Assembly: GCA_963693365.1 (NCBI GenBank)
Contig: CAVNZM010000003.1
Span: 15,111,143-15,175,142, forward strand
From: Amoebidium appalachense
Taxonomy: Eukaryota; Protista; Ichthyosporea
Direction of reading: 5' to 3'
DNA: 64,000 nucleotides
The notes under the pieces were generated by a model. The model was not told where the DNA came from. It saw only the letters and a program-made list of their open reading frames with translations, and ran no database searches. Every line of letters begins with the position of its first letter. The stretch's first letter is position 1. A program made the translations under genes and the position numbers. This document shows positions 24,601-25,531 of the stretch, piece by piece.

Positions 24601-25531
24601 CCCCCCCCCCCCCCCCCCCCCCTGCTGCAGTTGCTGTAATTGCATACATGAATGTTTGGAATGTGTAGTCCAGCGCAGTGTTTCTTATCGTAAAGTTGTA
24701 CTTCAAAACGTGCTTAGATTTCTAACAGCCCCCCCCCCCCCCTCCCCTCGGGACCTAATTCTTTTCAGCTGGTGTAGTATGTTAGCCAGGGAAGTATCGA
24801 CTTATGTAGCCGACGGGGGAGCTTCCTAGAAGCCCCGTCTCCTGAGTTCCTATCTATATTTTTCTTGCTTCTGCTTACTGCTGCAACTTTAACCCCCGGC
24901 CTTTCCCACTGCCCTTGCCTGCATAAGCAACCCTGCTCGTCTCTGATCAAGACGGGTGACCTACCCATGTTCAAGTGAAACAGTATCTGAGTTGGGTTTC
25001 GTTAACAAGGTGAATAGGTCGAAACTCGGGTACTGTGGATGACGTGGGCCCCCCCTGAGGATGGGCTCTGCTTATTATGCATACTCCTTATGTATGGCTT
25101 GCATTCTGCATCGTGTTATCCGTTTGTTCTTGTGTACTTCATACTTTTTGACGCATTCAAACCCCCCCCCCCCCCCCCCCCCCACACACACACACACACA
25201 CACACACACACACACACACACACAAAAAAAAACACCCACGCACCCACAGGCTGATGCCGAATGGACGGTGCAACAGCGCGAACAGCGCCTAGCTGAAGCA
25301 GCAAAACGGGACAAGGAAGAGGAGGAAAAGGAGGAAAATTTACGCAAAAAATTTTCAGAGGACGCACTTTCGGACGAAGAACCCCACCACAGGGGGTTTT
25401 TGGCGAATGTTCAGAAGCAGGCCGTGCTCTCGGGGGATGCAAATGCGAGTCTGGAGGAGAGGCTGCAGAGAAACAGGCACTTTATACAGAGGACGGGCGC
25501 GAGGTTGGAGGGGAATTTCATGGCGAAATAG
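18624..25531 (+). CDS. CWC25: Pre-mRNA splicing factor CWC25
   Basis: Exons 18624-18670, 21037-21223, 22228-22440, 22858-23749, 25250-25531. Translation includes [52 protein letters not shown], a Lys-rich and RS/RE-rich tail, and LEERLQRNRH. A frameshift near 23300-23334 must be bridged. Confidence 0.93.
24367..24500 (+). repeat. Degenerate copy of the intronic structured-element core
   Basis: GCATAAG..CCCTGCTTGCCTCTGAGCAAGA..GACCCACCCATGTTCAAGTGAA..AGTATCGGAGTTG ... GGACTCTGCTTTTATGCATA aligns by eye to the 24920 core. Confidence 0.7.
24748..25161 (+). ncRNA. Intronic structured repeat element, subfamily 1 (hairpin domain B + pseudoknot core C at 24920-25081)
   Basis: Near-identical to 44262-44675 and 45020-45432. 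Multiple stems use G.U pairs only on the + strand. Lies in CWC25 intron 4. Confidence 0.6.

Follow-up and report, generated by a model that had tools for sequence, protein, structure and literature searches.

A probable split-core hammerhead ribozyme in a tandemly repeated, likely non-autonomous Penelope-like element of an ichthyosporean

Genomic context of the repeated element

The window analyzed here, a 64-kb stretch of ichthyosporean DNA, carries three + strand genes: a CWC25-like gene with a Cir_N match, an argininosuccinate lyase gene, and a PMT-like gene whose PMT score lies below the Pfam cut-off. For one exon of the lyase, the top match carries the label Ihof (presumably Ichthyophonus) at 85% identity, and the following matches reach 75-78%. 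Copies of a repeated RNA core lie in GT..AG introns of these genes, which upholds the sense-strand intronic location proposed in the original prediction. Searches of the window by blastn and nhmmer, with positions 24901-25110 as the query, recovered the six full cores and three partial copies announced there, all on the + strand, with nhmmer E-values ranging from 5e-64 to 9e-14. The full cores fall into two types. Type 1 (24920, 44434, and 45191) shows a mutual identity of 96-100%, type 2 (35707, 36058, and 63331) is 75-79% identical to type 1, and the partial copies start at 24367, 36365, and 41204. Five of the six core starts were correctly predicted; the sixth, placed at 36057, is 36058.

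Rather than being a free-standing intronic RNA, as first envisaged, the core is one part of a tandem mobile unit. Every core lies within a non-coding unit, at 168-199 nt from the unit's 3' terminus, which reads CATTCAA and is followed by a C-run. The head-to-tail period is 746 nt in type 1 and 351 nt in type 2, and the 5' ends of the units vary. Alignment of the two types is limited to the core (80%, 179 nt) and the final 30 nt, suggesting that both segments are under selection. The units and their remnants are as follows (blocks and descriptor are described below).

24362..24511, + strand: decayed copy with blocks G and C missing or degraded (nhmmer E 8e-15; no descriptor match)
24745..25161, + strand: 5'-truncated type 1 unit between two C-runs, ending CATTCAAA (97% identical to 44260-44675 over 417 nt)
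35630..36323, + strand: two head-to-tail type 2 units (97% over 344 nt; predicted cuts after 35782 and 36133)
36365..36507, + strand: 5'-truncated copy with only block C and the 3' tail
41203..41319, + strand: decayed 5'-truncated copy (nhmmer E 9e-14; no descriptor match)
43954..45432, + strand: two head-to-tail type 1 units (43954-44675 and 44700-45432) with a C-run spacer (94% over 735 nt; no stop-free stretch longer than 99 codons; cuts predicted after 44507 and 45264)
63254..63605, + strand: single type 2 unit, predicted cut after 63406

The copy at 36365-36507 is a mosaic that combines the P4 region and tail of type 1 with the stem I strand CTCC of type 2; it derives either from another subfamily or from template switching. 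Immediately before the type 2 tandem, a single-copy stretch (35380-35612) ends in TTCAA and a C-run; it is possibly a third family with the same 3' terminus and no core.

The unit was present in 20 of the 24 sequencing runs listed, from seven studies and five coded organisms, and none of the runs containing it is recorded as RNA. In one DNA run (X10), 6293 contigs fell on the unit, and the summed depth, which includes other subfamilies and is not a copy number, was 19-73 thousand at 43950-44199 and rose more than tenfold, to about 850 thousand, at 44600-44649. The low number of variable places in this run (24 rows over 731 bases) carries no special message about the core. Two other runs contained the unit in a contig of 776 nt, the 746-nt period plus a 30-nt overlap. 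Such contigs fit a closed 746-nt loop, a result that tandem DNA and a circle give alike. Taken together, the common 3' end, the C-runs, the tandems, the 5' truncation, and the climb in depth are marks of target-primed retrotransposition. Head-to-tail copies, 5' truncation, and a microsatellite target are also traits of Penelope-like elements (PLEs) of the Naiad or Chlamys kind, and the tandem unit is likely a non-autonomous PLE. No Penelope reverse transcriptase (RT) or GIY-YIG domain was detected among the 40 ORFs of the window that were scanned.

All nine copies occupy the + strand in a window with 105 C-runs and 76 G-runs, and the imbalance is larger inside the three genes (61 C-runs versus 19 G-runs). 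The supply of C-runs explains most of the strand bias, with a possible remainder.

Several other elements were observed in the window. Two stop-free frames on the - strand (31506-31940 and 30918-31421) presumably resemble the C-terminal part of a non-LTR reverse transcriptase, based on a YKYLG word. They had no Pfam match, and their ESM Atlas neighbors at 0.95 were unnamed eukaryotic clusters, with one further cluster at 0.92 in which 16% of the members carry RVT_1; no link between these frames and the ribozyme unit was found. A second head-to-tail repeat around C-runs, with a period of 316 and 96.5% identity, was recorded at 28440-28986 on the - strand, together with 29100-29650, and the adjoining stretch contains one CTGAGGA and two CGAAAC words that do not fit the descriptor. 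A dispersed 130-nt repeat (46348-46469 and 50296-50423; 81%) and a 61-nt tandem repeat (27216-27445) are unrelated to the ribozyme.

A conserved RNA fold shared by two subfamilies

The helices and blocks of the core are given below for the copy at 24920, using hammerhead numbering.

24920..24933, + strand: 5' strand of P1, the closing stem; CCC 24931-24933 pairs with GGG 25063-25065 (constrained fold, pair counts)
24935..24957, + strand: P2 hairpin, 8 bp, ending directly before G10.1
24958..24963, + strand: 5' strand of stem II, G10.1 at 24958 (6 bp with 25015-25020; U-A to C-G in type 2)
24964..24973, + strand: 5' strand of P4 with a 3-bp extension (pairs with 25040-25048; U.G to A-U in type 2)
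24974..24979, + strand: bulge strand of a kink-turn (k-turn) consensus, partner GGA 25037-25039
24980..24996, + strand: block S, stem III strand to U16.1 (24992), U17 (24993), and stem I GGG
25015..25036, + strand: block G, stem II 3' strand to C11.1 (25020), G12-A13-A14-A15.1, and stem III strand
25052..25062, + strand: 5' half of block C, stem I strand, C3-U4-G5-A6-G7-G8-A9 (25055-25061), and one U
25063..25082, + strand: 3' strand of P1

All helices named in the original prediction are present: the 42-pair structure leaves 98.0% of the 252 cells paired, with four pairs altered on both sides, and a first version with 47 pairs gave 96.8%. In controls where the partners were slid by 1-3 columns, only 27-47% of the cells were paired. 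The two-sided changes proposed as compensatory covariation do occur, but they go back to a single divergence of the two subfamilies and not to repeated events; their count was reached in 54 of 500 shuffles and does not exceed this control. Between a type 1 and a type 2 copy, eight pairs differ and six of them are still paired. With 12 substitutions placed at random, the corresponding test gave P = 0.003, a value that is optimistic because the structure came from these same sequences. Folding z-scores computed without pseudoknots were modest (-1.43 and -2.28), and the pairs of P1 are mostly invariant and lend it no covariation support. Two of the words described as fixed were found to vary, TGATC reading TGACC at 45191 and a 16-mer carrying a 7-nt duplication in the copy at 36058, and P4 shows single changes at 44434 and 45191. 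The earlier conclusion that the RNA structure is under selection was judged right.

The Rfam comparison proposed at that stage was run on the whole window and returned no match at the gathering score. Searches of two copies by E-value gave chance-level matches only, one of them to Hammerhead_1 (E 3.6) over GACC..GGUC-GAAAC.

A probable hammerhead core with strands in non-circular order

The original prediction named both a ribozyme and a retroelement among its candidates, and was judged right on both; its candidate ribozyme was a new one, and no hammerhead consensus could be fitted by eye. The core does fit a hammerhead if its strands may follow a non-circular order, and does not constitute a new ribozyme class. 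A descriptor requiring CUGANGA, C-GAAA, U-H, and stems I and III was tried in all six block orders, and matched all six full copies in the order S-G-C. In the window, the other five orders gave no match, including the circular orders CGS, GSC, and SCG (types I, II, and III). Controls yielded two matches in 60 locally shuffled windows (0.03 per window) and 5 in 20000 shuffled cores.

Every core base expected of a hammerhead is in place. CUGAGGA (the C3-U4-G5-A6-N7-G8-A9 core) occurs in 6/6 full copies, as do C11.1-G12-A13-A14-A15.1 (CGAAA) and a GUU site, with an A15.1-U16.1 pair and an H17 that is not G. GUU is one of the less common hammerhead cleavage sites. The core is flanked by stem I (3-4 bp), stem II (5-6 bp, with G10.1-C11.1), and stem III (9-13 bp); in the copy at 24920 the descriptor gives a stem III of 13 bp and a stem I of 3 bp, and the predicted cut falls 3' of GUU, between 24993 and 24994. 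Stems I, II, III, and P4 each show one two-sided change between types. In stem I, which reads GGG/CCC in type 1 and GGAG/CUCC in type 2, it is a G-C to A-U change. P4 is a helix of 7-8 bp (by script, in all six copies) between the far ends of stems I and II. The overall order is P1-P2-IIa-P4-(III,GUU,I)-(II,GAAA,III)-P4-(I,CUGAGGA)-U-P1.

The pseudoknot of the original prediction is real and corresponds to stem II, and its P5 to stem III. Within P5, U17 had been paired with A14; U17 is the predicted cut-site base, and the minimum-energy prediction does allow it to pair with A14. The earlier structure lacked stem I, which forms a second pseudoknot.

Stems I and III, the upstream stem II, and P4 (the last two of at least 5 bp each) were jointly present in 6/6 copies and in 0/120 viral loci chosen for having the core words in this order. 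These loci were drawn with a general S-G-C pattern from 52 of the 64 parts of the viral contigs scanned; 5/120 had short stems I and III, and none the full layout. A pattern specific to the family found no locus in viral contigs and eight in metagenome contigs, none homologous and none fitting the full descriptor. The repeated fold is thus very probably a hammerhead-derived ribozyme with an upstream stem II, and the core would probably cleave measurably in vitro.

Where the strand of stem II comes from

In the best-supported arrangement, stem II draws its 5' strand from about 100 nt before block C, which opens the chain between A9 and G10.1: A9 and one U run into P1, and G10.1 directly follows the P2 hairpin. 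In Penelope hammerheads, this position is reported to hold one bulged base (PMC4209133), and it is from here that P1 and P2 would hang. P4, by tying together the far ends of stems I and II, would do the job of a loop-loop contact. In run X10, variants occur on the two sides of the stem II pair at comparable frequencies (4.2% at 44476, 3.6% at 44530), linkage being a separate matter.

Alternatively, the core might be an ordinary type-SGC hammerhead with an unbroken block C, in which the bases directly following CUGAGGA build stem II, and the GACC helix upstream acts as an inhibitory off-state. Insertions of 1-2 nt after A9 are allowed (PMC10085705) and usual in Penelope hammerheads (PMC4209133), stems II of 2 bp occur (PMC3088659), and one Naiad family, from octopus, likewise has GG after A9-U. 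On paper, the contiguous option offers 2 bp after a 1-nt bulge or, after a 2-nt bulge, 4 bp in type 1 and 6 bp including three G.U in type 2. Its predicted stability is -2.2 to -3.5 kcal/mol, against -6.7 to -8.7 kcal/mol for the 5-6 bp upstream helix, which makes it weaker by about 4.5-5 kcal/mol. Its sole difference between types is one-sided (C-G in type 2, a C/A mismatch in type 1), whereas the upstream helix has the two-sided U-A to C-G change, and the option is absent from four of the five split-layout Naiad families. The copy at 36058 provides a natural test construct, as its 7-nt duplication (36199-36217) directly after CUGAGGA abolishes the contiguous option (+1.4 kcal/mol) without disturbing the split core. 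This alternative is therefore considered very unlikely. A pairing of the GGG after A9-U with the CCC before stem I was also considered, and is disfavored by the constrained fold of the copy at 24920 and by the Naiad layout; the predicted folds of the other copies do prefer it.

A split-core type-SGC hammerhead carried by a likely non-autonomous Penelope-like element is the best explanation of the data as a whole, with a probability of roughly 0.7.

A kink-turn consensus, possible gating, and a proposed processing pathway

A k-turn consensus consists of a 3-nt bulge followed by G.A and A.G pairs. The resemblance noticed earlier at the junction of P4 and stem III (then P5) holds in 6/6 copies, each with a 3-nt bulge ending in U and followed by G, A, and A. 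The third pair is A.G in type 1 and U.U in type 2, and the arm is constant at 16-17 nt. On rough geometric grounds, a folded k-turn would hold stem II beside stem III instead of on top of it, which suggests an off-state that might be relieved by unfolding or by a strand swap between tandem units. Cleavage restricted to dimers was considered, and this idea was softened by a rough estimate of A-form lengths, according to which a monomer can close if the k-turn and its 3-bp stem open.

In the processing pathway that we propose, a transcript running through two units would be cut at each GUU to release a unit-length RNA with the C-run kept inside. This RNA may perhaps be ligated into a circle, a tentative step. 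A Penelope-type RT-endonuclease acting in trans could then nick a genomic C/G run and begin copying at the C-run of the RNA, and a start at this position would produce head-to-tail and 5'-truncated copies. A role of hammerheads in processing and circle formation was proposed by Cervera and de la Pena (PMC4209133), and for retrozymes too (bioRxiv 10.64898/2026.07.22.740005). For a canonical PLE, ribozyme cleavage was reported to be dispensable for insertion in vitro (PMC11167929).

Other readings of these data have to be weighed. One takes this topology, which lies outside the six thought possible and in which the chain enters by way of the catalytic core, for the standard ribozyme of Penelope elements with an N-terminal endonuclease, older than animals and gated in the present lineage. 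Once the k-turn is folded, the arm of stem III (16-17 nt) would run alongside the arm formed by P4 and stem II (about 15 layers); arms lying side by side cannot give the coaxial II/III stack, so that a single sense intronic copy would be held off, perhaps by Snu13 on the k-turn, whereas two tandem units would swap strands and cut. This broader reading is unlikely. The RNA might instead be a hammerhead-derived scaffold, inactive or very slow, kept as a binding or initiation signal for the RT-endonuclease. Catalytic mutants that left canonical PLE insertion in vitro unimpaired (PMC11167929), the poor cleavage of minimal Penelope hammerheads (PMC4209133), the short stem I, and the possible U17-A14 pair all speak for such a scaffold, which is made quite unlikely by core bases that are all intact in the six full copies of two families otherwise unalignable, and by the rates of 0.004-0.19 per min measured for the non-circular forms tested by Eckert (PMC10085705). 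A host intronic non-coding RNA, snoRNA-like or riboswitch-like and selected for a role in the host genes, would account for every copy being in sense orientation within introns and for the box C/D-type k-turn consensus of type 2. With no Rfam match, three unrelated host genes, copies that belong to tandem, truncated, and decayed mobile units, and thousands of contigs in one DNA run, it is highly improbable.

Implications for hammerhead diversity

What is novel here is a variant of the hammerhead class with a split core, for which cleavage is predicted from sequence. The stated rule that the CUGAnGA block cannot be interrupted would be broken by such a core, and all descriptor and Rfam searches would then be blind to the split layout. 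Non-circular hammerheads, so far a feature of rare viroid-like RNAs, would also gain a place in high-copy retroelements of eukaryotes, the split layout would extend to a unicellular holozoan, and the reported lack of hammerheads in Naiad elements would have a direct explanation. In ribozyme engineering, the A9/G10.1 opening would be a natural port for attaching helices.

Comparison with known hammerheads and Penelope-like elements

Type-SGC hammerheads (HRIMA-1 and variants) were described by Eckert et al. 2023 (PMC10085705) as having the order S-G-C, a helix linking the distal ends of stems I and II, and cleavage rates of 0.007-0.19 per min. Literature searches, subscription journals aside, found this as the only type-SGC paper, whose supplements may hold eukaryotic or split variants, and turned up neither the split layout nor any non-circular hammerhead in a Penelope element; the accessible part of PMC13725137 refers to other hammerhead variants by citation only. 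The present core shares with type SGC the block order, all core bases, stems I-III as pseudoknots, and the far-end helix (here P4). In contrast to the sequences described in the accessible part of the Eckert paper, its stem II strand lies about 100 nt upstream, P1 and P2 enter at A9/G10.1, the whole spans ~160 nt instead of ~80, the S-to-G linker measures 18-21 nt instead of typically 3 nt, and stem III is long and carries a k-turn consensus. The host also differs, being a genomic retroelement here, while the published SGC set was collected by a search that started from metatranscriptome contigs. Eckert et al. assumed that no more than 1-2 nt ever lie between CUGAnGA and its stem II strand; the best-supported stem II of the present core departs from such an unbroken block C, with the weaker contiguous option remaining.

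Tandem non-coding units with one hammerhead each, and one base between A9 and the next helix, recall the minimal hammerheads of non-LTR retrozymes and Penelope elements, the second trait being that of the latter (PMC4209133; bioRxiv 10.64898/2026.07.22.740005). Those hammerheads belong to type I, have a minimal stem III, and depend on dimers, whereas the present core is non-circular with a stem III of 9-13 bp, and the descriptor found no type I hammerhead in the units of the window. At L007, on the - strand (~1314-1700 on the reversed sequence), three minimal type I hammerhead cores were seen in tandem, with a bulged U after A9 as in Penelope repeats.

Canonical hammerheads are lacking in Naiad and in the majority of Chlamys elements according to Craig et al. 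2021 (PMC8557442), who also described Chlamys PLEs that form head-to-tail non-autonomous copies at (C)n targets. The latter features are shared by the present unit with the Chlamys PLEs and MRC1 of that study, although these occur in the green lineage and slime moulds and not in an ichthyosporean; two (C)n-targeting Chlamys consensi read whole by eye contained no such core.

Naiad elements show a likeness in layout. The 3' regions in File S5 of Craig 2021 were read by eye, without a script, for the 20 of 54 consensi displayed, a sample biased by the motif and header searches that retrieved it. In this sample, the split layout was recognized in 8/20 consensi, type CSG in 5/20, and 7/20 could not be assigned. 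Those with the split layout (Bfor, Amil, Aacu, Anas, one without a visible header, Dst-4, Obim, and Ovul) fall into five distinct families whose helix sequences are unrelated. All have an upstream stem II of 6 bp, and stem I measures just 2 bp in Bfor. As four of the five families have no G within 3 nt after A9, their stem II must come from upstream. Intact type CSG hammerheads were read in two Pristionchus consensi (identified by file order), Nbra-3, Hpol, and Smim, from nematodes and a spider. Type CSG, of which Eckert 2023 reported two sequences (PMC10085705), is the same ring opened elsewhere, and Naiad_Hpol has a GUU site. Six of the eight consensi labelled 'HHR_half_core' read as full non-circular hammerheads, the exceptions being Dst-3 and Esco. 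Naiad elements have been reported only from animals and mostly target (TA)n, whereas the present unit comes from an ichthyosporean, targets C-runs, and shows no ORF; both share tandem, microsatellite-targeted insertion and, in eight Naiad consensi, the split layout near the 3' end.
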